From: Haliotis cracherodii
Lineage: Eukaryota
Assembly: GCF_022045235.1 (NCBI RefSeq)
Contig: NW_027266266.1
Span: 5,084,001 to 5,148,000, forward strand
DNA length: 64,000 nucleotides
Direction: 5' to 3'
Below the pieces are notes generated by a model, which did no database searches, was not told the origin of the DNA, and was given only the letters and a program-made list of their open reading frames with translations. Position 1 is the stretch's first letter; each line of letters begins with the position of its first letter. Shown here one piece after another: positions 1 through 64,000 of the stretch. The translations under genes were made by a program, and so were the position numbers.

Positions 1-1434
1 AATTACCTTATATCTCTATCAGAGTATATATCATACGTTAATTAGCGCATAGGAACAACTACATTGTGACATTTCAGTTTTGATTTGGTTGGTTGGTTTG
101 GTGTTTTACACCGCACTCAGCAATATTCCGGCTATATGACAGTGGTCTGTAAATAATCGAGTCTGGACAAGACAATCCACTGATTGTCATCATGAACATC
201 GATCCACCCATTCGGGATCACCCGATCCCATTAGTCGCCTTTTACGGCAAGCATAGGTTGCTGAAGACCTATTCTACCCCAGATCTTCACGGGTCTTTCA
301 TTTTGGAAACATATAGAAGTAAATATATTGGTAGTGATTCCGTGGCTTTTGTACAGTTGCATTATATCTCATTTTTCGACCCCAGCATTCAAATCTTTAC
401 TTTTACCCAACAAAATTTTCAAGAAAATGTTTACCTCAAAATAAATAAAAGTCTACAAACAAGAAGAATGAGATTGCAAAAAAAGCAGTCATTATTTTAG
501 ACAATTTTCGGAAATGAGTGCTATTGAAATTATAATAATTCATGATATTATATACGCTGATCACAGTATTGACAATAAATGGTTTGGGCAGTGTACTTCG
601 ATTATGCTATTATCGGCATATCTGTGGTTGTCCCTGCCCTGGACAATGCTGGAAGAAGTGGCAAATATAAAATCCTAAACATATAAATAATAAACATATG
701 TCGCCACAGTCGGGGTCTATCCATTTGTGAATATGGCTGCACCTATCTACCTATCTCCGCCTCTAAACACTGTGCACTCCCAAGCTTGTGTGTCAGTGGA
801 CAGTGCTTTGTCCAGGCAGTAGGTACATGATTCTGCTTATAAACGAAGGTGTTGACAGGGTGAAAGATTTTACAAATGGATCAAATTAGTACAGTACTTG
901 AGCAAAGACACTGTGACAATTAGATTGCCAATTTTCTGATTCTACCACATGACCACTAGGCTACTATTACATAAAGTTCCTCAAAATAGCAGACAATCGT
1001 CCAAATCTGAATCTAGCTTACTGCTGAGCCTAACATGTTAATGACTACGGAGTCTATAATATTCACTAATACACACTATGTAACGACGAATATAATAACA
1101 CTCAGGCATATTACCAACAATGACTTTTCAATCGTCAGTCCACAGGAGATTTGTCGTCTCTTTTTCTGTCGCCACTGTATATCTGGGGTCGAAGGCCTAA
1201 CAGGAACTTGTATTCACCATGTTGATTGATTGACGTCACATGAAAACGAGAGTTGTCTTTCCTTGACAACCAAACGCACCTTCTAGACTTGCCGCGGCTC
1301 TTTATTTCCTTGAATGGTGACAATTCTATCGCCGCACGCTTATCCGTCGCAATACGACTAGACGCAATATATCAGCCATTAAAGTATAAGGTTAACTTGT
1401 GTAATAATGTTCCAGCAAGTTACATCGTAAAACG

Positions 1435-1677
1435 ACCCGTGAAGATCCGGGATAGAATAGATCTTCAGCAACCCATGCTTGTCGTAAGAGGCGACTAACG
1501 GGATCAGGTGGTCAGGCTCGCTGTCTTGGTTGATACATGTCATCGATCCCAATTGTGTGGATCGATGCTCATGATATCAATCACTGGATTGTCTGGTCCA
1601 GACTTGATTATTTACAGACCGCCGTCGTAGAGCTGGAATATTGCAGAGTGCGGCGTTAACCAACAAAACCAACCAAC
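1435..1677 (+). mobile_element. SINE-like family A, full-length copy (non-tRNA head). Other copies: 86-294(-), 8255-8450(-), 16840-17069(-), 21141-21361(+, chimeric), 25927-26120(+), 26270-26472(-), 43808-44047(+), 57635-57742(+), 61616-63530(nested)
   Basis: About ten copies in both orientations, consensus ACCCGTGAAGATC...GCTTGTCGTAAGAGGCGACTAACGGG...GTCTGGTCCAGACTCGATTATTTACAGACCGCCG...GCTGGAATATTGCTGAGTGCGGCGTTAAAC plus (AACC/AAAC)n tail; 12-bp target duplication around the 21141 copy. Confidence 0.88.
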
Positions 1678-3094
1678 ATCGCAAAGAAATGCCAGGGTTG
1701 TAGAGAAAATGCTATTTGGGAAAACCGACACCAAGTAGACCGCGTACTACAGGTCTATATTTCCATGATTATGATTCGCACCTTATTGTGCTAATTGGCT
1801 CAGGCTGACGGCTGTGGCTCTCGCTTCATTGATCTCGCCTGCCGCTTCCATGTCTTCGATAAACGGGGTTAGTTGTGTGGGATGCGGTGAAATCGAAGAC
1901 ACCGCCAACTCGTCGTCACAAATTACATGACAAACCGGGAGTGAAGCCTGCGAGCACTTACATATATATGGTGGTGACAAACCAAGAATCTTAATCAGGG
2001 CGAATCTGGGATTCGAACCACTATCATATATGTGGGACGCACTACCGCACAGTGGCTTGGGGTTGTCCGCACCCCAAAGCTGATATCATCATGTCTTTGT
2101 GTGAGGATGGGGTTGAAGACGCACATTGACAACTATGGTATTAGGGAGGCTACTCTTGTCAGCCTATCTCATAAGGATTTTATTGTTGAAAAGTCAGTTG
2201 GCCACCAGAGGAAAAGAGGCTTAGTTTAGACTTTCGTTCCCACTTTTTCCTGTATACCTACAACCTTTTCTTTTGCATAAAGAAGGTATCTGTAATTGAA
2301 TAGGTTATTCGCCTAAAACTTGGGAATGGATTAGTTATAGAGTTTTCTATATTAGTAGTAAATGTCTGTATTTCTGTTTGTTTGTTAGTTTAACGCCGCA
2401 CTGTAGGCCGTTGATGCTCTGGGGGTGACTCAGGCGTGGTCGGATGGGGGCGGGATCCGATTCCAGTATGTATTCCTACACCTGGAATGTTTATCAGTCT
2501 CGTCAGTTTTGTCTGTTTGGATATATGCAACTGTTTTTTGTTAAACTATTGTAGATAAAACATGTTTTACGTTGTCGAATTTAATTTTAAGCATTTGACT
2601 GTGTAATTGTTTCAGTTCAGTGAGGTATGAATCGAAAAACCGACGCATCAAACAAGGGTCAGCACTCTTCGATGACGTCACAATGTGGCCTGCATCACAG
2701 GGAACTGATGTTAATGTGATGACCAGGATCTGGAGTATTTGGACACGTTATGGCTCTTCAGAATAACAGACTTAAAATCAAGGCATTACGTGTATACATA
2801 CACTAAAACATCCAGTGTTCTGTACATTATGTATTGCAGTTGTTCCTGAAAGAGGTAAACTTCCAACTACAACGTCAAACTAACCTGCTATTGAAATGGA
2901 TATAAAATATGTCACGTGTAAATAATTCTCCATTGAATTCCTCAAGTAAAACCAATATAACAGTTAAGGGAATTAGCGATAGGCACTGACAAATCTCTGG
3001 CAACTGAAAATAACCCGAAAAGATCACAATGTCAGAAACAAGAATCCACCACATGAATAATTTAAACATAATGCATTAATTATCTACCCCTAAC

Positions 3095-16300: not shown

Positions 16301-19300
16301 ATTCCCTTTCACCGACGTTTGACAGCAGCGCCATCTTTTCCTGGTTCGCGTTCCACAGCCACAGCCTGTGCTACAGCCTCCCCATGACAACCAGTTGACC
16401 CACGTGCAGTGTCGGGCACAGTCACCAAATGCAGTTGTCTCGCCTGGTAAACATATAAATGCGAAGTTCGTTATGTCAACCTAATATCTTCCATAACAAG
16501 GATAATCCTACTTACACTTGTTGCTGCTCAACCTACCATTGTCCAAGCCCTGGTTATGTTATTTACCCAACAGTGAGTGAGTGAGTGAGTATGTTTTTAC
16601 GCCGCTTTTAGCAATATTCCAGCAATATCACGGCGGGGGACACCAGAAATGGGCTTCACACATTGTACCCATGTCGGGAATCGAACCCGGGTCTTCGGCG
16701 TGACGAGCGAAAGCTTTAACCACTAGGCTACCCGACCGCCCCATTTACCCAACAGAGTGGAAACAAAAGCAGTGTGCGATACACCCATCTTCCTATGAAT
16801 ACAATGTTGTTAAATAATACACACATGGTATCTTTGGGGTTTTTTTTACGCCGCACTCAGCAATATTCCAGCTATATGACGGCGGTCTGTAAATAATCGA
16901 GTCTGGACCAGACAATCCAGTGATTAATATCATGAGCATCGATCCACGCAATTGGGATCGATGACATGATCACCCGATCCCGTTAGTCGCCTTTTACGAC
17001 AAGCATAGTCACCTTTAACGGCAAGCATGGGTTGCTGAAGATCTATTCTACCCCGGAATCTTCACGGGTTGTATCTTTGGGGGATTTGGTTGTTGACTTT
17101 AGTGAGTAACGTATTACAACATTACAACTAACCCATATGTTTTTAACAGAATAAGACCGCCTCCGTGGTCCTGTGGTAGAGCGTCCGCCCGGAGAGCGGA
17201 AGGTCCAGGGTTCGATCCCGGGCCGCGTCATACAAAAAGACGTTAAAAGATAGTACTTGTTGTTACCCTGTCTGGCGCTCGGCATTAAAGGGCTAAAACA
17301 AGGACTGGTCGGCTCGGAGTCAGTATACTGTGTCTGAGTGGGGTATTCATGTTAAACTGCGGCATGGTATCTCAGTGAGCTAGCACTATAAATCGGCATC
17401 AGTCCGGACTAGTACAAGCAGCCACACACACACATACACGTGCATGCACGTCGCTATATAAGTGCAATAATCTTGGACGCGACGTTAAACCCAATTTCAC
17501 CTCACCTTTAACAGAATAGCGTCGCAGATAACTTGCATTCTGGCACCTGTATGGTCAATTGAGGCTTAACTGGCTTGTTTGTTTGTTTATGTATTTGTTT
17601 GTTTGTGTGTTGTTTAAACTGGTGACGTCAGCCGGAAGTCCGTCATGTTTTGTCTTGCCATGAACATGATAAAGCATGGCCACAATACTGACGCTGCATT
17701 CTTGTTTTCTCGCGACTCAGGGTTGGCTGGACCAAAGAACTGGCAAAGTTCTATGCGAACATTTGTGATAAATATAAAATAACTTTTGTCGTTGTAGTAA
17801 TGACGAAATCTAGGCATCTTCGCGGGTCGCATTAATAATGTTAATGACGTTTTGATAAGCCACTTGCTTGGTATTCTGCGATTGTTTACGTAGTATCTCA
17901 ACCTTTCATAGAGGAACAGAATCATGTCTTGAATAAAGACACAGTTTATACCCACAGAAGTATAAAGTCAGTGTTAGCAAAAGTTTAAATACGACCCCTT
18001 TGAGGGCAGTCTTAGTGTATCGGTCAAACTAATTCTTTTGCAGTTGTCTCTGCATAATTAATACACGCGATAAAACAGAATCATGGACCCAATTCAAGTA
18101 AATATTAAACGCCAACACCTGAGATTGTCCGTCGAGACAGATTTCACTTGGACTAAAGGCCATAACAGCGGTGACAAGTTAATCAGTGGATCACTGAAAA
18201 CCAGTGATGACACCAGGTGTTCGCGAAAAATGTAAGCATGTCCTGCCCTACCGGAAGCATCCGCCACTCACGCAATTTGCATAAAAAGGTATGTGTTTGT
18301 TGCCTGACATCAGACTTTTTGTAATGGAATCGTGAACGATTTCTTTTCATGATGCTGTTCACATATTTTTGTATCTGTGTTCTGCGTGAACTTCTGCGAA
18401 ACTTCAGTTAGAACTGTTCACATGTGCAATCTTCAAATGGAATGTAAAACATTATCATGATTGGATCATATTTTGGACATTCAAGACTAACTCGGGGGCA
18501 CGGGTGGCCCAGTCGTCTGAGGTGCCGCGATTCGCTGTGCAGGGTAGAGTCCCTTGGGCACGCCAGGAATCTATGATTTTGGGTTCGAATCCCGGTTCGC
18601 CCCGATTATATTTCTAAGTTTGTCAGCACCATACCCGTGCTCGTGGGTTTCACCGAAGTGGTACACTTCTGAGACCTGCATCACTTCTGGCTTTCCTCCC
18701 ACATTAAGCTGACACGCCGCGGTAGAAATGGAATACTATTAAAAGCGGCGTTAACCTCAACTCACTCACTCACTCACTCAAGACTAGCTCAATATTCTAA
18801 CATTATGGTATGAGTGAGTTGGGTCTGACGCTGTATGGGATAGGATGAGTATGGCCCACGATCTTGGATATGAAACCGGAATTTGAACCATGCACGATAT
18901 GAGGTTTCCTCTGCACAAGGAAATGCGGAGACTCAGACGACTGGGACAATCATTCCTCGCCACATTCACATGAAGAAATTAATGACATATCATTGACATA
19001 ACAATGATATAAAATTGACATTTTATCCCATACCAGCACGCGAATGAGATGTTTGGCAAACCCAGTGACAAAACAAATATTAATACAATACACATGCCTC
19101 GTTCACAACAAACTCCATATCTGAGAGGAGGACAGTGACAGTAGCCATCGATGAAGCTTCCACCATTAGGGCAGTGTGTCTCACAATATTCCGTCTCCAC
19201 GGACGCGTTTGGTCGGTGACATTTACCGATACAGTCTGGAATATGAACTCCACAACACATCTTTCGTGTTCTGGTTCTCAGCCCAGCACATGTTCTGGTA

Positions 19301-19413: not shown

Positions 19414-22241
19414 GTCAGCAGTGTGACTGAACCCAGTATCCTGTGATGGCAACACTTTCCTGAAAAATAGGAAAACAGTGTTATCTCATTGTTTATTCAA
19501 ATGCGATTGCCGTCGCTGCATGACTGATGCGTGATGTTTGTGTTTATGGCCTTCTGCAGATAAAATGAGTATAATTGAATAATTGGTTAAACAAAACTAT
19601 TTAAAAACTCTGTTTGATCATACTTTTTATAATATCGCAATCAGATATTACATTTTATTCTCAAAGGTAAAAGAGTGTGAGTGAGTTAATATTTTAAGTC
19701 ACGTCAGCAATATTTCAGCCATTTGGTGACTAGACAAGATAATGCGTTTGATGTTATAAGGCGTACCGTCAAAGGAAGTAAAACAAGAAAACAGCGTTAT
19801 CATTAACCCGACGTAAAGAGAACAAAATTTCGTTCTAATTCGTCCCTCAAACGAAGTTCAGCTGTTTCTGAGAAAACTTGCCCCTATTGCAAAATAACAT
19901 GGATCGAAGGCCGTAACTCAGTAAACAATTAATTGACGGGACCAATTTTGGAACTCAGTCTTGACAAGTATCTCTTGATAAAACACAAGTTCAAAATCAC
20001 GGAGCAAGGGCAATAACCCTGTACAAATTTAATTTACGACTGCTGTCAAGTTTGGCCGATAATTAAGACATACAAAATTATATTGCGATTAAAAACGTGG
20101 TAGCCATAAAAATACTGGCAATGATGTATAGGATAAAGCACGCCTCCGAGGTTTGGGTTGAAAATATTTAAAAAAACGCCAGTGAGGGAAAGCTTTCCCC
20201 GAGGTCAAGGTTTTACTTTTCCAACCAAAACCGAGGAGGCGTGTTTTATCCAACTTATGAACCGACTAAATGCAAGAAAAACACAGAAAAAAAGAAAACA
20301 TCGAAATACCTTACAGTGAAACAATACAGTGTATCGCAGTATAAAAGGAATTTGATCAAAGCGTGCTAGAGAAAAACCACGTGCAGCATGGACTAGCTGG
20401 AGTCATGACATGATGAACTTGACAACTTCTGATCACCTGCCCTGGTAGCTCAGTGGTAAACAGCGGTTACAAAACTTAACACGATATGAGTTTTCAGGTT
20501 TGATTCAAGTCATGGAATTTTTCACATTTAACAACTTTGGCTTTTAACCAATCATCAATCACAATTGTGTTCACATCAAGAATAAAGTTAACAAAACGTT
20601 AATTTGAAACCTAGGTATTTCAATTGAAATGTATTCATCAGGTCACGTGAATTACTCCGGAACGCTTTTTTGCATTGTTGGTATTGCCTTCCTTGTAAGG
20701 TTATCAACATTTAGAAGAACTTTCTGTTACTGTTGTGTGACGTCATCAGAGGTTTATAAGTGGTCTTATGTGCCCTCTCGGGGTCAATGGTTTTACGATA
20801 TATATTCTTCAACCCCTATCGAGGAATCGGCCTCTTTAACCTTAGTTACTGATTTCTTCGTCCAAATTAAAACGCATTCAATTTATACAAAACAATATTA
20901 AAATTTGTGAATAAATTCAAGTTTTTAAAAAAAATAATAAACAATTAAAAGAATGTTTGTATTTCTAAAAAGATCCATCAATGAAGATGCTTTGAAAACA
21001 TTATCACTTGTGTTGGCAAAATCAACAGTCAAGCAGGACATTTTTGACCGTGATTCGTTCATCACAAGGGATACAAAATTGAGGATAATAACCTTTCAAT
21101 AAATAATCATGTAAAATCGTCCTCTTTACATCTGGACTGGACCCAGGAAGAGCCTGGATAGAATAGCTCTTCACCAACCCATGCTTGCCGTAAAAGTGAG
21201 TGAGTGAGTTGGGCTTAACGCCGCTTTTAACAATATTCCAGTTATATCGCGGCGTGTCAGCTTAATGTGGGAGGAAAGCCCGAAGTGATGCAGGTCTCCG
21301 ACGTTAGCCACTTAGCTGGAATATTGCTGAGTGCGGCGTTAAACAACAAAACAACCAACCAACATCTGGACTGACAGCCTAAGTAGGAGTAACAAGGTAA
21401 AAGACGATGAATATTTTGCACTTTTCAATAAATTCCACTCAACCGGATGTCGCGTTTTCTGCAATGAAATAAAGAATATTCGGTAGAAACTGCTTTAAAT
21501 GTTCTCTAAAAGAAGGCAGATATCCAATCCCATACCATTGCAAGTCCAAGAAGTCTTTGGAAGTGCAGGGTTAAGATAAAGCGATACGGCCCTTTCCTTC
21601 TCTGCCAAAATCTCTACCAGGTGTTCGCGAAAAGGTGAGCGTATCTTGCCCCACCGATGACACCCGTCACAAACACATGCAAAGGCAAATTAATTGTTCA
21701 CCTGGAAAAACACGGGAACATATGGCACAAGTCAATCACGCCAAGTGAAAATGATAGATGACGTGCCATGGGAACGATCGCAACCTGACGTCGCACTTCA
21801 AAGAAACGTCCACGGGAACACTATATGACACTTATGGCAACAGAATACCCACGTCAGAGACCGTTCCCAGGTAGTGGCCACCAACCCCTGATAATCCCTC
21901 GCCAAGACATATGGATTCGAAATATTGTAAAATATTAGTATGAAGATTATCATGCACGTTCTAATGGCTGACATTTAGCCAAAATCTTAAAATCTAAATT
22001 TGAGCAAGAGCAATTGTTGGCGACGTCATAAATACAACTTGCTTTTCGCTGTTCTGTAACCAGGACATATACTCTTTCAATAAAGAAACGCAAAGCCAGA
22101 TTTGTGTGAGGTAGGAAAATGCATCTTTACGAGGAACCGTACAAAGTATTGAGCCAAAATGTTGTGGAGAGAACACTTGGTGATTGTAGTCATCTCAGTT
22201 ATGGGAACATAGGAAAAGTCCAGGGTGAAGGCCAGCTACCA

Positions 22242-25258: not shown

Positions 25259-26472
25259 AGCATAGGTTTGTCAAAGCCAGCTAAATAGTGAATGCAGCAT
25301 TGGTTTATTTATTAGAATATGTAAATTTTACATATTTATGAATCTGATACATTTGTCGCAAGGATTGACCTTTCGTGTAAAACTGTGGTCGTCTGGTTGA
25401 AGGATACAGTTATTCCTGAGCGGTGATGCAGTTTCTTGAATGTGATTACTTTAATACACCACTTAGACGTTTTATCACGGAACTGTAATGCTCGCCAGCA
25501 ATAAGCCACGCCATTTATGAAGTATGAATACAGGTTATCAATACTATTTCTATACTGCTGTAACTTCCCTGTCACTGGAAATATGGACCGGAATATAAAC
25601 AATGCCTTTTATTCGTAAATGTCAATTGTTTAAATCCTCTCCTTTATACGCATCGTGTAACGTTCACTGTAACACGTTGCTGAATAGCCTTGTTAGTACC
25701 GAGATGTTCTTTTCATCATATATTGTGTTTTTATTTCCTTCTTTAAATTTAGTAGCTTATGAGTGTTTCATGGTTTCATGTTTTTTCGTTTTGACAATGT
25801 CTGTCAGATTCATCACACATGCATTGAATCCCCATACATCCACGAAGACCCCTTCTAAACAGTGCATGCTCTGAGACGATAATTTGGTTGTACATTTGTT
25901 GCATATACCATAATAAAACAGTGAGTACCCGTGAAGATCTGGGTTAGAATTGGTGTTCAACTTGTCGAAAGGAGCGACTACAGGCTCCCTGACTTGGTTG
26001 ATACAGGTCATTGTATGCCAGTTGCATAGATCGATGCTCATGATGTCAATCACTGGAATTACAGACCGCCATCATATAAATTGAATAATACTGAGTGCGA
26101 CGTTAACCAAGCAACCTACTAATGTATATATATAACAATAATCGGGTGACCGGACTCGGATTATGAAAATGCACACATAGGTCCACACAGTTACAGGAAG
26201 TGGGGTGAAATGGCGTTTAACGTTGCATTTATGATTATTTCACTTATTTAGCGATGTTTTCCTGTGTTTATGTTGTTTAACGCCACAATCAGCAATCTTA
26301 ATCTTGCAGCTATATGACGGTCGTCTGAAAATAATCGAGTCTGGACCAAACAATCCAGTTATTGGCACCATGAGCATCGACCCATGCAATTGGATACGAT
26401 GACATGCATCAACTAAGTCAGCGAGCCCGACCAACCGATCCCGTTAGTCGCCTCTTTCGACAAGCATGGGTC

Positions 26473-41500: not shown

Positions 41501-44500
41501 GTTGTGTGCATAAATTAAACGATCCCCTGATTCATGTCACGCCAAAGTGTATATTCCTACACCTGGAATGTTTATCAATCTCGTCATTTTTGTCTGTTTT
41601 TATATATACAACTGTTTTAGTTAAACTATTGTACATAAAACATGTTATACGTTGTCGAATTTAATTTTAAGCATTGACTGTATTTATTTCGGTTCATTGA
41701 GGTATGAATCGAAAAACCGATGTGCGGATTCTTACAAATGTTTGCACATCGGTTTTTCGATTCATACCTCAATGAACCGAAAATAAAACAGTCAATCCTT
41801 AAATGATTATTCTTCGGCTATTAATTTTACAGTTGGTGTCTAAAGTATAACCTTTAAAAACGTAGAGAGTGCTCCATCATCCCGAGGCAAGAGAGTTAAC
41901 TTTACTTTAAAGTCCAGTTTCCACACTTGCCGAACTAGACTGGTATTATGGAGTTATATTTTGGCTGGACTATAAAGTCTGTGCATAGTCCAATCATAAT
42001 TGCGAAATGAAATCGATATCCGGTTCGTAAACTGCCGTGCAGATTTCGATCGATTGTAGGATTTGCAAAGCATGTGTACTGCCAACTCGGCGTCAACAGA
42101 TATTTCCCGAATCCTTTCAAACTTTTAATCAAGGTTCTTTCGTGATTTGATCCACTTCGCGAAGTAAGACCCGTTTTATCACTTTTAATCTTGATTTTCG
42201 ATAGGATCGTCTTGACTGGGCGCCTCCATTTTGTTTGAAGCAAATGCAAGTGATATGCGAGGTGGAATTTGGTTGGTCAGTTGTGGGGTTATCGGAGGGA
42301 AATAACTCGTAATAGCCACTGGTGGCGCTAGGTTCGGCAAGGATGGAAACTGGACTTTAAGAGTCAGTTGACGCAGTTGCCTCGGGAAGATGGGGGTAAC
42401 TTAATATTTCTAAATTGTGAGACACATTATTTTCTAGTAATAGTTGCATGATAAGAATAAACGAAGTTGGACTAGGTAGTGAAGTATGACAGTAGATGGT
42501 ATGACTGCCAACGATCTTGAAGGACCATATAGGTAAGATGGGAAATTTCAAAGTTGACGTTTTTGGATCAGTAGTGCGTAATACCGCCAAGATTTGTCAA
42601 AAATTCATTCAATCGACGAGGCATTCTGCCCCAACGTCTCCCAATGGCAATTTGGAGGTCTGTCTCATTCCTTTGCAACCCTTCGCCAAGTTCAGCTGAC
42701 ATGATCACCAGTTGACGTTGATGCGAACGTCTCCCTATCGAGTCCTAGACGTGTTCAGTGGGGGGCCATCTGGGCTCATTACTGGACATGGCATTCTAGG
42801 GATGTTGTGCTGCTGGAGGTGAGCCTTGACGATTCGTGCACGGTGGGCATGGGCGTTGACGTCCTGAAAGACGAAACGTCGACCCACACGTCTTGCAAAC
42901 TGGACAACAAATGGTTTTAGTATATTTTCCTGATAGTACTGTCCAGTGACAATTGCTTGCACGATATGAAGTGGGGTTCGCTCATTGAATGGTGATGCAA
43001 CCCCTGCCAAGTGCAAAGTGAATCGGGACTCATTTGAAAGCATGACACGTGAACAGCGACGTTTACCCAAGTTTCGACTGTCTGTACACCGTTGCGTCTG
43101 TAGGCAATATGACGATTTGTAAGGGGCGACACAACACGTGGTCATCGAGCATGGAGACGAGCTGTATGTAGACGATTTCTAATCGTGTGACCCGTAATTC
43201 GTACTCGAGTAGCGTGAAGAACGTTTGCGGAAATTTGATTCACCGTTCGAGCTCGATTTCGAAGAGCCTGGACCGCCTCTGTGGCCTGGTGTTAGAGCGT
43301 CCGCCCGGAGAGCCTGGACCGCCTCTGTGGCCTGGTGTAAGAGCGTCCGCCCGGAGAGCCTGGACCGCCTCTGTGGCCTGGTGTTAGAGCGTCCGCCCGG
43401 AGAGCCTGGACCGCCTCTGTGGCCTGGTGTTAGAACGTCCGCCCGGAGAGCCTGGACCGCCTCTGTGGCCTGGTGTTAGAACGTCCGCCCGGAGAGCCTG
43501 GACCGCCTCTGTGGCCTGGTGTTAGAACGTCCGCCAGGAGAGCCTGGACCGCCTCTGTGGCCTGGTGTTAGAACGTCCGCCCGGAGAGCCTGGACCGCCT
43601 CTGTGGCCTGGTGTTAGAACGTCCGCCCGGAGAGCCTGGACCGCCTCTGTGGCCTGGTGTTAGAACGTCCGCCCGGAGAGCCTGGACCGCTTCTGTGGCC
43701 TGGTGTTAGATTTTTTTTATAATAACCATTTGATAATATTAAGCTTAAGTACATGTATAAGGCAAACGATGTGGTCTTATGGTTACGTCTTGGTCTTAAT
43801 AGATGCAACCCGTGAAGATCCGGGGTAGAATAGTTCTTCAGCAACCCAAGCTTGCCATAAAAGGCGACTAACGTGATCGGGTGTCAGGCTCGCTGACTTG
43901 GTTGATGCATGTCATTGTATCCCAATTGCGTAAATCAATGCTCATGATATCAATCACTGTATTGTCTGGTCCAGACTCGATTATTTACAGACCGCCGTCA
44001 TATAGCTGGAATATTGCTGAGTACGGCATTAAACAACAAACAAACAAGCATTTCTTAATAGATGCCTTTGTATATTATTTGATGACTTGATGCCTTTTTA
44101 TTTCAAACTGTATTGAATACGTGCATACTATTTGATGAAGACAATTTCAATTGGAAGATAGTGTTTAGGACTCAATGTGATCATATTAGTAATGGTCTTG
44201 AATGCATGTATCCTACATGCTGATAATGATATTGACTACATGCATACTACATTAAAGTATGGTTATAACGAAGTCAAAGGGACTACTAATTTTAGTTCGT
44301 TATAACCGTAGTTCGTTATAAGCATATATACAGCATAACTAAAGCAAATAGTTGGGACTAAAAAGTAAGTTCGTTATATCCGTCAGTTCGTTATAAGCGT
44401 GTTCGTTATAACCGTAGTTTACTGTATTTGCATACGAAAATGTTTTTATAATGGTGTTCCAGGGTCCACTGCTCCCGCTAACAGTGAAGTTGTGACGTTC

Positions 44501-61610: not shown

Positions 61611-61747
61611 TCATTCGGTCGGGTTAGAATCGATTGTTTGTTGTTTAACACAGCATACGAGGGCATACATCAACCCAGTCACCGAAACTTACCACCCTGT
61701 CCCCGTTAGTCGCCTATTTACGACAAGCATCGGTTGCTGAAGACCTA

Positions 61748-63289
61748 TACTACTCAAAATTTGATAAGGATCGTAGATATTTTTCTTAATAAAAAAACAA
61801 AATAACTGCATAACTGGCAATATTGCGTTCAAGTGAAATCAAAAACGTCTCCAACACACTTGCACGTGCATTTCATGCCATGGGAAATGCGTTTCACATC
61901 ACAGTTCATGCTTTTGCTACCATTGCACGATTTCCAATCAGGCAACGGTGTCTGATTCATTCTGAAACTTTAAACTCAATTGAGTGTTTACACTACGTTT
62001 ATCTACGCAATGCCCCCTCAACGTGTAAGGCGTCGCCTGACGACAGAACAACTGGGCAGATGTATTGGAATGCTTGATGCTGGCTATTCACAACGTGACG
62101 TTGCCAATGCACTAAACGTCAGCCAGAGCGTTGTAAGCAGGGCCTGGTCCCGACAGCAAACTTTTGGTACAGCAGCACACCGACATGGGGGTGGTCGTCA
62201 GAGGTCGACAACCCAACGCCAAGATCATTTTGTGGCTCTTCAGGCACGACGTCATCCCTTCTGGACAGCAACCAGCCTACGTAACGACCTCCTGAGCGCT
62301 TCGGGGGTGATGTGTCCACTCAGACGATACGGAATCGTCTTCACAATGCAGGTCGCTACTCGAGAAGGGCATGTGTCCGAATCCCCCTGACTGTTCGACA
62401 CCGGCGGGAGCGATTGGAATGGGCTGAAGATCATGTCACTTGGACACGGAACGATTGGGTTCAAGTTCTGTTCACCGATGAGTCCAGGTATTGTTTGGAC
62501 TTTACAGACAGGAGGCAGCGGGTGTGGTGACGACAACGTGAACGTTTCCATGATGCCAACATCAGTGAACATGACCGTTATGGTGGTGGTTCCATCATGG
62601 TCTGGGGTGGAATCAACAGAGATGGAAGGACAGATCTTCATGTCCTGGAGAGAGGAACAATGACGGGGGTGAGGTACCGGGATGAGATCCTCGATGTGTA
62701 CGTCAGACCCTACGCTGGTGCTGTTGGCCATGAGTTCATCCTGATGGGTGATAACGCCCGTCCTCATCGCGCCAGGGTGGTTGAGCAGTACCTTGAGCAG
62801 GAGACAATTGTCCGCATGGATTGGCCAGCGCGTTCGCCGGACTTGAACCCGATTGAGCATGTCTGGAACATGCTGCAGGTTGCCCTTTCACGCCGTAGAG
62901 CACAACCCACGACTTTGGCAGAGCTCGGACATGCCCTGGTGGAAGAGTGGAACAACCTTCCCATTGGGAACATCGGGGTGCTTATTGACAGTATATCTCG
63001 ACGTTGTCAGGCCGTCATTGATGCAAGGGGAGGTCATACTCGATATTGACACTTCATCGACTAAGTGTAATGATGGACTATCCCTCATAACTGTGTAATT
63101 CTTTCTCTTGTTTGCTGTTAACATTTTTTAATGAAATGCCTTTTGGTGTTGATACAAGTTCATGCCGTTCATGAATTTTCATTCATAACATGATTAAACA
63201 CGTTTCTGAGTCAGAGTCATGTCTTTTGTTATGTTTGTGGTAACTTACACACATATCACCTAGTGATCCTTATCAAATTTTGAGTAGTA
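61748..63289 (+). mobile_element. Full-length Tc1-family (DD34E) DNA transposon; transposase 62010-63049 has two lesions
   Basis: Perfect 25-bp TIRs TACTACTCAAAATTTGATAAGGATC, TA target duplication (61746-47, 63290-91). LFTDES, MVWGGI, GDNARPH, SPDLNPIEH with 34 residues between D and E. Frameshift near 62310 and TGA at 62528-62530. Confidence 0.95.
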
Positions 63290-64000
63290 TATTTTAACCA
63301 GGGTCTTCAAAGGTTCTTCAACGATCCATGTTTGTCGTAAGAGGCGACTAACGGGATCGGATGGTCAGTTTCGCTGATTTCGTTGGTGCATGTCATCTGA
63401 TCCCAGTTGTGTGGATCGATACTCACGATATCAGTCACTGGATTGTCTTGCCCAGACTCGATTATTTACAGACCGCCGTCATTTCGATGGAATATTGCTG
63501 GGTGTGGCGTTAAACAACAAACAAACAAAAACATCACACACCTCGAATCACACAGTCACTCATCTCATATCACTCAGTCACTCATCTCACGCCACTTACT
63601 CGTCCAACTGCATTTGTAGTGGACATTGCAAGTTGTGTGAATTGCGGGTGTACCGGTAGGGCAGGACATACTTCTCCTTTTTCACCTTGATTTTCAATGA
63701 TCTATTCATATAATTTTCAAATCAATTTTGCCTTTTACACCCGACAGAATTTGTTTCTTCGGATAATCGCATATTCTCTAGGCAAGTGAGTTAACTGACT
63801 CTAAAAATCCAGTTTCCACCCTTGTCGAACTAGACTGGAGTTCCCGAGTTACAGTTTGGCTTGACTAACGAGTCTATGTATGGTCCAATGAAAATAGCGT
63901 AACGTACTAGACATCCTAGCCGTAAAACTCATGTATTTCAACGAGCAGACTTCGGTCGACTGCAGGATTTGCAAAGTATGTGTACCGTCAAATCGTCGTC

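Follow-up and report, generated by a model that had tools for sequence, protein, structure and literature searches.

Two predicted pseudoknots in series at the 5' end of a Haliotis SINE: a fold common to LINEs and RNA viruses and a possible exonuclease-resistant RNA

In 2016 Matetovici and colleagues reported on the LP-SINEs of Haliotis (Hdi_LP, Hmi_LP; 255 bp), the head of which, approximately 70 bp long, was presumed to be a promoter (Matetovici, 2016; PMC4758252). According to the accessible part of that paper the same head is found in Nimb-17_LMi, I-3_DR, RTE-9_CPB and the MESC SINEs of scallops. In contrast to the present analysis, the accessible part gives no RNA structure for the head and no viral copies, and a ribozyme is brought in only by analogy to Pr77.

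With HDV-like ribozymes, too, non-LTR elements that are otherwise unrelated begin exactly at a small structured RNA (R2, L1Tc with Pr77, RTE and Baggins, as given in the accessible sections of PMC6765202). The fold described here differs from them in topology and lacks a free catalytic C.

Viral exonuclease-resistant RNAs (xrRNAs) are described, in the accessible text of the respective papers, as lying in 3' UTRs, often in tandem, and as depending on pseudoknots and a ring of 15-16 bases (PMC8374639). Those of class 3 stall Xrn1 'precisely at the base of P1' (PMC12397905), xrRNAs occur in tombus-like and noda-like viruses (PMC10520033), and frameshift pseudoknots do not stall Xrn1 (PMC10321173). 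The accessible text of a 2021 review still listed a cellular xrRNA as unfound (PMC8374639).

The fold resembles the viral xrRNAs (flavivirus classes 1 and 2, plant class 3 and coremin), as far as these descriptions go, in its place in 3' UTRs, its tandem copies, its pseudoknots and the proposed end of the product at the base of P1, and coremin is found in the same loose virus groups. It is compact and lies upstream of the RNA end to be protected, in viral 3' UTRs as well as at the 5' end of elements. It differs in having two pseudoknots in series, in being present in cellular retrotransposons and in that its resistance is predicted. Compared by the published descriptions, in their accessible parts, its secondary structure is none of class 1, class 2, class 3 or coremin: there is no three-way junction, no class 3 layout and no YGAD/YGNNAD loop. 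In the shortest forms the P2 loop together with its closing pair comprises 14-15 bases, as against the 15-16 bases of the xrRNA ring, which is suggestive only.

The SINE copy at 1434 and its family

The window, a stretch of 64,000 nucleotides from Haliotis cracherodii (contig NW_027266266.1, positions 5,084,001 to 5,148,000), contains at 1434..1675 on the plus strand a full-length SINE copy of 242 bases, composed of head, body, LINE-like tail and CAAA/CCAA repeats; copies with a duplicated P4 module are longer. The copy is bordered by likely target-site duplications at 1422..1431 and 1676..1685 (plus strand, both read from the sequence), which match in 9 of 10 bases, two extra bases preceding G1434. 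The tail at 1628..1660 (plus strand) resembles the 3' end of the HDV-headed LINEs in the same genome, with about 75-80% identity over 34 bases to several LINE copies; the match to one decayed LINE copy was not above that of shuffles.

The initial annotation had listed five starts at ACCCGTGAAG (294 on the minus strand, 1435, 17069 on the minus strand, 25927 and 43808) and a sixth at ACCCAGGAAG (21141), all of which are present in the window. It had let the element begin at 1435, which is one base too late. Sixty evenly spaced 10-kb pieces (600 kb) of the 1.18-Gb genome yielded 124 matches to the SINE body, of which 45 extended to the 5' end of the head, 50 had a partial head or none and 29 were cut in the body; by extrapolation from these 124 matches the genome harbors roughly 240,000 SINE fragments. 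In 32 of the 45 sampled heads with a 5' end ACCC is preceded by G, the bases further upstream being mixed, and in 20 of the 23 SINE copies having a target-site duplication (12 further copies have none) the duplication ends at most one base from this G. The start of the element is therefore G1434, the 5' boundary of the family, and SINE copies begin sharply two bases before P1. On a SINE copy three small-RNA runs with a related label gave 7, 41 and 3 reads without a pile-up at the 5' end, the reads being too few and too short to carry weight.

Searches of the head revealed neither a tRNA or 5S head nor clean A and B boxes, in agreement with the initial annotation. The head is common with the 5' end of LINEs, from which it is derived, and spans about 70 bases; target-site duplications, a terminal tandem repeat and a length of about 250 bases (255 for Hdi_LP) are further features common with LP-SINEs. 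In the accessible part of the supplements (Fig. S2 of PMC4758252) the scallop head has the same core, AGAAU and, by eye, the P1, P2 and P3 pairings. Size, layout and the scallop head thus fit a member of the LP-SINEs, the consensus of Hdi_LP being absent from the supplements searched. The scallop elements, as printed there, start raggedly inside the C-run of P1 and lack the initial G.

With a covariance model the window gave 9 matches to the head or to pieces of it. A second head lies at 221..297 (minus strand, 69 bits). Four heads were also matched by their start: one with a duplicated P4 module at 16973..17072 (minus strand), a truncated head with a compensatory change in P2 at 21138..21203 (plus strand), a degenerate head at 25924..25991 (plus strand) and the head of another full-length copy at 43805..43881 (plus strand). 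Heads truncated at the 5' side were found by the model at 61696..61772 (minus strand) and 63293..63361 (plus strand). Among 60 SINE copies 37 have a single P4 module, 19 a double and 1 a triple one, 3 being unscored; in the double ones the first module usually has the TTGCC form. At loci L068, L037, L084 and L085 whole heads stand in tandem, including heads of a different family directly before the SINE head. At L354 and L097 a tRNA-like head directly precedes a partial head and the body of the SINE, reflecting either head exchange or nested insertion. The tRNA-Trp called by ARAGORN at 62828-62903 of the window (minus strand) may be the head of another SINE family. A satellite (G000:C23:27097890-27100431) has as its repeat unit 34 bases constructed from the head's P4 core.

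Two predicted pseudoknots in place of a four-way junction

Homologues were collected with an exact 22-base pattern (42 metagenome loci), a 17-base pattern (11 viral loci) and a gapped pattern (7 genome loci); the invariance of the core is in part built into these patterns, while the rest of the head was unselected except for AGAAT in 7 loci. After 16 near-duplicates, 2 short or SINE-like loci, 2 likely chance matches, locus L266 and 4 chance viral matches had been left out, 38 representative families remained (22 metagenome, 7 viral, 6 genome and 3 own). Pairings were scored in a hand-picked alignment of 16 rows with equal spacing, 4 of them from one LINE family, in 68 rows fitted by the covariance model, and by pairing strands across families; since the families are related, the permutation counts given below are not true probabilities.

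P1, the first pseudoknot, pairs CCCG 1436-1439 with CGGG 1448-1451 (plus strand, as for all helices below) inside the loop of P2. In the 16 rows 82.5% of its cells are paired, with two-sided changes in 3 of 5 pairs, and its own-family pairing was reached by 0 of 20000 cross-family permutations. P2 is formed by 1440-1447 and 1460-1467, its loop ending in the conserved AGAAU at 1454-1458; AGAAT is exact in 26 of the 31 families not selected on it. The P2 cells are paired to 87.5%, with two-sided changes in 7 of 8 pairs (16 rows) or in all 8 (68 model-fitted rows), and again 0/20000 permutations reached the own-family pairing. P2b, GCA 1468-1470 with UGC 1476-1478, carries the 5' strand of P3 in its loop. 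All three of its pairs are formed in 22 of 33 families and at least two in all 33; 11 of 20000 permutations reached its own-family pairing, and all three pairs show two-sided change in the 68 model-fitted rows.

P3, the second pseudoknot, pairs the strand before GCUU with the strand after CUAA (CCC 1472-1474 with GGG 1500-1502; 3 bp here, 4-8 bp in most homologues). Its own-family pairing was reached by 0/20000 permutations, as was its length: at least 4 bp are found in 23 of 33 families, where 11.9 are expected from cross-family pairing.

The P4 hairpin, GUCG 1481-1484 with CGAC 1492-1495, has a 7-base loop and is followed by UAA. Its register was read from 46 LINE heads, which represent about five subfamilies: the flanking outer pair is G-C in 30, U-A in 9, G.U in 6 and U.U in 1, and the next, closing pair G-C in 39 and G.U in 7. 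CUAA occurs in 7 of the 46; its C, which is base-paired to G, is replaced by U in 7 of the 46. These variants favor the GUCG/CGAC register over that of the initial annotation, TTGTC/GGCGA with a free CUAA, and with it the proposed likeness of CUAA to J4/2 of HDV disappears. The TTGCC variants cited there do suit the earlier register and are found in 16 of the 37 single-module SINE copies, while the LINE heads do not back the register itself; a switch or a relaxed constraint in the SINE is therefore possible. About 15 bases of P4 are near-invariant, which comes in part from the search patterns.

The initial annotation had rightly recognized a conserved, covarying and unclassified RNA fold (38 families, no match in Rfam), and its helices GAAGATC/GATCTTC and GCA/TGC are supported by the homologues. 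The four-way junction into which it had placed them is the minimum-energy nested fold of this single copy (z -2.47) and does not hold across homologues. Its closing stem CCCGT/ACGGG is paired in 46% of the cells and scores lower within than across families (18998 of 20000 permutations reach it), and its loop-loop pairing ACCC/GGGT is reached by 17435 of 20000. As P1 and P3 are supported and these two are not, the partners of the two CCC/GGG pairings had been swapped. The compensatory GAAGAGC/GCTCTTC of the copy at 21141 was confirmed and turned up in one further genome copy (2 of 95 heads); in 2 more of the 95 the G of GAAGAGC is present without the compensating C. The G.U state of the 294 copy, listed by the initial annotation as a change, is the majority state (64/95 heads).

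The head is thus predicted from sequence to consist of two pseudoknots in series, the second with the P4 hairpin in its last loop, and both would form at once. Judged by sequence comparison, the element boundaries, P1, P2, P2b, P3, the register of P4 and the placements in viruses and LINEs given below are very probably correct. In Rfam the fold matches no family (hammerhead, twister, pistol, hatchet, HDV and others), on which ground identity with HDV, twister, pistol, hatchet and hammerhead ribozymes was rejected. The nested double pseudoknot of HDV (P1-P2-P3-L3-P1.1-P4) was sought with a descriptor written from general HDV features and loosened after its first version had missed the controls; 0 of 80 instances of the fold and both of two upstream HDV controls fit it. 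The unpaired, invariant catalytic C of HDV J4/2 is absent from the fold.

The fold in LINEs and viruses

The initial annotation had suggested looking for an autonomous LINE with the same 5' end, and one that has the fold near its 5' end was found in this genome by a search with variant cores. In alignments the head matches the 5' UTR of full-length LINEs of the I/Nimb type (the clade name was taken from PMC4758252 and the domain order), the ORF2 of which carries APE, RT and RNase H domains. One young family of these begins at a separate, compact HDV-like ribozyme of 57 bases directly upstream of the fold. This ribozyme fits the HDV descriptor in full and is matched by Rfam RF02682 with 29.4 bits, below the gathering score of 44 bits (E 0.001 in a 351-base search); a weak HDV_ribozyme match (26 bits) extends 33 bases into the fold. 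Six copies (G000:C80:9136950-9144450, which is L474, and L473 and L475-L478) include intact elements of ~6.2 kb; ORF2 has 1230-1235 residues and is unbroken in 5 of the 6, and target-site duplications of 12 bases adjoin the first G of the ribozyme (4 of 6 copies by the 3' end shown). Several subfamilies have a common 5' end and diverge inside ORF1; copies taken for internally deleted LINEs proved to be such diverged subfamilies, and that interpretation was withdrawn.

A 5' query selected 30 LINE copies, all of which begin at the HDV site. When 30 copies were picked by downstream sequence only, all 29 readable ones started there and none at the fold; one of this second set is the query and several overlap the first set, and the copies are the best-scoring ones rather than a random sample. 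The fold nevertheless still covaries in the HDV-headed LINEs. Among 76 heads tested an HDV-like ribozyme lies upstream of 2, both of the same LINE family. No paper linking Nimb elements and ribozymes was met in the literature search beyond that on LP-SINEs. The LINE-family pattern has 672 matches, and 73 of the first 100 listed lie within 0.9 Mb (G000:C2:20.83-21.74 Mb), possibly a centromeric or heterochromatic region.

Eight viral records carry the fold, namely six distinct RNA-virus records, two records being one virus, and one DNA-virus record. In 6 of 6 RNA-virus records the fold follows the last long ORF on the coding strand, close to the 3' end of the contig, the last complete core being 17-122 bases from that end and the records being intact across the 5' edge of the fold; in 2 of the 6 it stands in tandem. 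Their domains are RdRP_3, RdRP_4, S-domain and a nodavirus-type or A21 capsid (L468 has a capsid match only), and in the tombus-like and toti-like records the fold is in the 3' UTR. In the 212-kb DNA-virus record it is intergenic, 124 bases before a long ORF. Looser viral scans gave, among the matches listed, one more record, and 50,697 phage records gave no match.

Occurrence in bacteria was considered and rejected. There were 7 matches on genome contigs, of which two bacterial-looking ones (L267, L272) are SINE-like pieces at contig ends, with ACC-repeat tails and one copy per genome, most likely from chimeric assembly. Sequence of eukaryotic SINE or LINE type inside or at the ends of bacterial assembly contigs (L267:1-560, L272:1-250, L271) likely reflects contamination or chimeric joins.

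A possible exonuclease roadblock and its rivals

The covariation and the occurrence in RNA viruses indicate that the fold acts as RNA. A ribozyme or an internal promoter, the two readings offered by the initial annotation, are both weakened because 29 of 29 readable LINE copies start at the upstream HDV-like ribozyme and because the fold is found at the 3' ends of RNA viruses, which have no DNA stage. If the DNA of the fold were an internal Pol II promoter (the 'LINE promoter' of Matetovici, 2016), the initial G being a copied cap and the RNA structure secondary, its occurrence in unrelated LINEs and SINEs at their 5' ends (PMC4758252, accessible part) and the extra G would be understood; yet four helices show compensatory changes, the HDV-headed LINEs start elsewhere, RNA viruses have the fold and the scallop elements, as printed in that paper's accessible supplement, lack the G, and we regard a promoter as very improbable. 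A new class of self-cleaving ribozyme cutting just 5' of P1, the earlier idea with the corrected structure, is also unlikely in our opinion. Such an enzyme would produce the sharp start at G, a double pseudoknot with many fixed bases is what small ribozymes have, and by the accessible sections ribozymes are known at LINE 5' ends (PMC6765202) and, including tandem pairs, in UTRs of linear RNA viruses (PMC13725137). However, the absence of LINE starts at the fold (0/29), the lack of a conserved base at the would-be cut site across families and the failure of all 80 instances to fit the HDV descriptor speak against it; cleavage within a viral 3' UTR would separate the genes from the 3' terminus, and the ribozymes published for viruses mostly lie before ORFs, according to the same sections (PMC13725137).

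A signal for replication or packaging read by the element's own proteins (ORF1 or ORF2 protein of the LINE, RdRp of the virus) would be expected near an RNA end, where the fold always is, and might be duplicated, as it is in some families. But the fold is common to unrelated polymerases (RT, RdRP_3, RdRP_4) and lies at opposite ends of their RNAs, which points to a host target and renders such a signal improbable. A host target is retained if the fold is a cap-independent translation enhancer or a docking site for a host factor, 3'CITE-like in viruses and IRES-like in LINE leaders, kept by the SINE to reach the ribosomes that make LINE proteins. This would agree with the near-invariant hairpin, with the 3' UTR position in the tombus-like and toti-like records, with retention behind an HDV-like ribozyme, whose product is uncapped, and with the intergenic position 124 bases before a long ORF in the DNA virus. 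By itself it leaves the exact start of many element families at P1 unexplained, and 3'CITEs are described, in the accessible part of PMC12397905, as specific to plant viruses; we hold it to be rather doubtful.

The four properties to be explained, namely action as RNA, a host target, the marking of the 5' end of several families and no role at the 5' end behind HDV, are all accounted for by an exonuclease roadblock. We therefore tentatively favor, with somewhat less than even confidence, that the SINE head is an xrRNA that sets and protects the 5' end of the element RNA. A SINE copy would be read through from a neighbouring promoter, and the host transcript, once decapped or cut, would be trimmed by a 5'-3' exonuclease (XRN1/XRN2) that would stall at the base of P1, a three-dimensional ring having presumably formed around the 5' end. 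LINE proteins would then reverse-transcribe an RNA starting one or two bases before P1, and RNA viruses would obtain a stable subgenomic RNA of their 3' part by means of the same fold. XRN1 requires RNA with a 5' phosphate. That no LINE copy starts at the fold although the fold covaries is therefore expected of an xrRNA preceded by a 5'-OH end, and is not expected of a ribozyme cutting at the 5' end or of an internal promoter in active use.

The viral occurrences found amount to only 6 RNA-virus records and one DNA-virus record, which counts against the xrRNA reading, and the strong conservation of P4 and the retention behind HDV are only partly explained by it. Since frameshift pseudoknots do not stall Xrn1 (PMC10321173, accessible part), P1 and P2 alone may not suffice. 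The constraint on the fold persists in HDV-headed LINEs, which seem to have less need of a 5' block, and so hints at an additional function, and the near-invariant bases of P4 suggest a protein site or a catalytic pocket. Alternatively, the start at a single base, G, could stem from a copied cap or mark a site of cleavage. LINEs beginning at the fold would have an uncapped RNA that must still be translated, which counts against the xrRNA reading.

The sequences of the SINE family and of its head have been published; no account of the structure or of the link to viruses was met in the literature searched. The core strings occur in none of these papers, and on the head only the LP-SINE paper was met, though Repbase, subscription papers, figures and bioRxiv supplements may hold a description. 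It is possible, though we would put it below an even chance, that the fold represents a new structural class of xrRNA and the first xrRNA of cellular genomes. Such a portable double pseudoknot would provide LINEs and SINEs with a defined 5' end in the absence of a promoter or ribozyme, would be exchangeable for the HDV ribozyme in this function and would have passed back and forth between retrotransposons of animals and RNA viruses that are unrelated. In this genome the HDV-headed LINE family serves as a built-in natural control, and the same genome supplies the support for a second pseudoknot and for the register of P4. The fold is short and has many natural variants.

The SINE is very common in this mollusc genome, and its head is also found near the start of some full-length retrotransposons. 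The precise 5' ends of promoter-less non-LTR elements have so far been explained only for the ribozyme-headed ones. A fold common to the 5' ends of LINEs and SINEs and the 3' ends of RNA viruses points to a third route to a 5' end and, should it prove to block Xrn1, would count as a cellular xrRNA.
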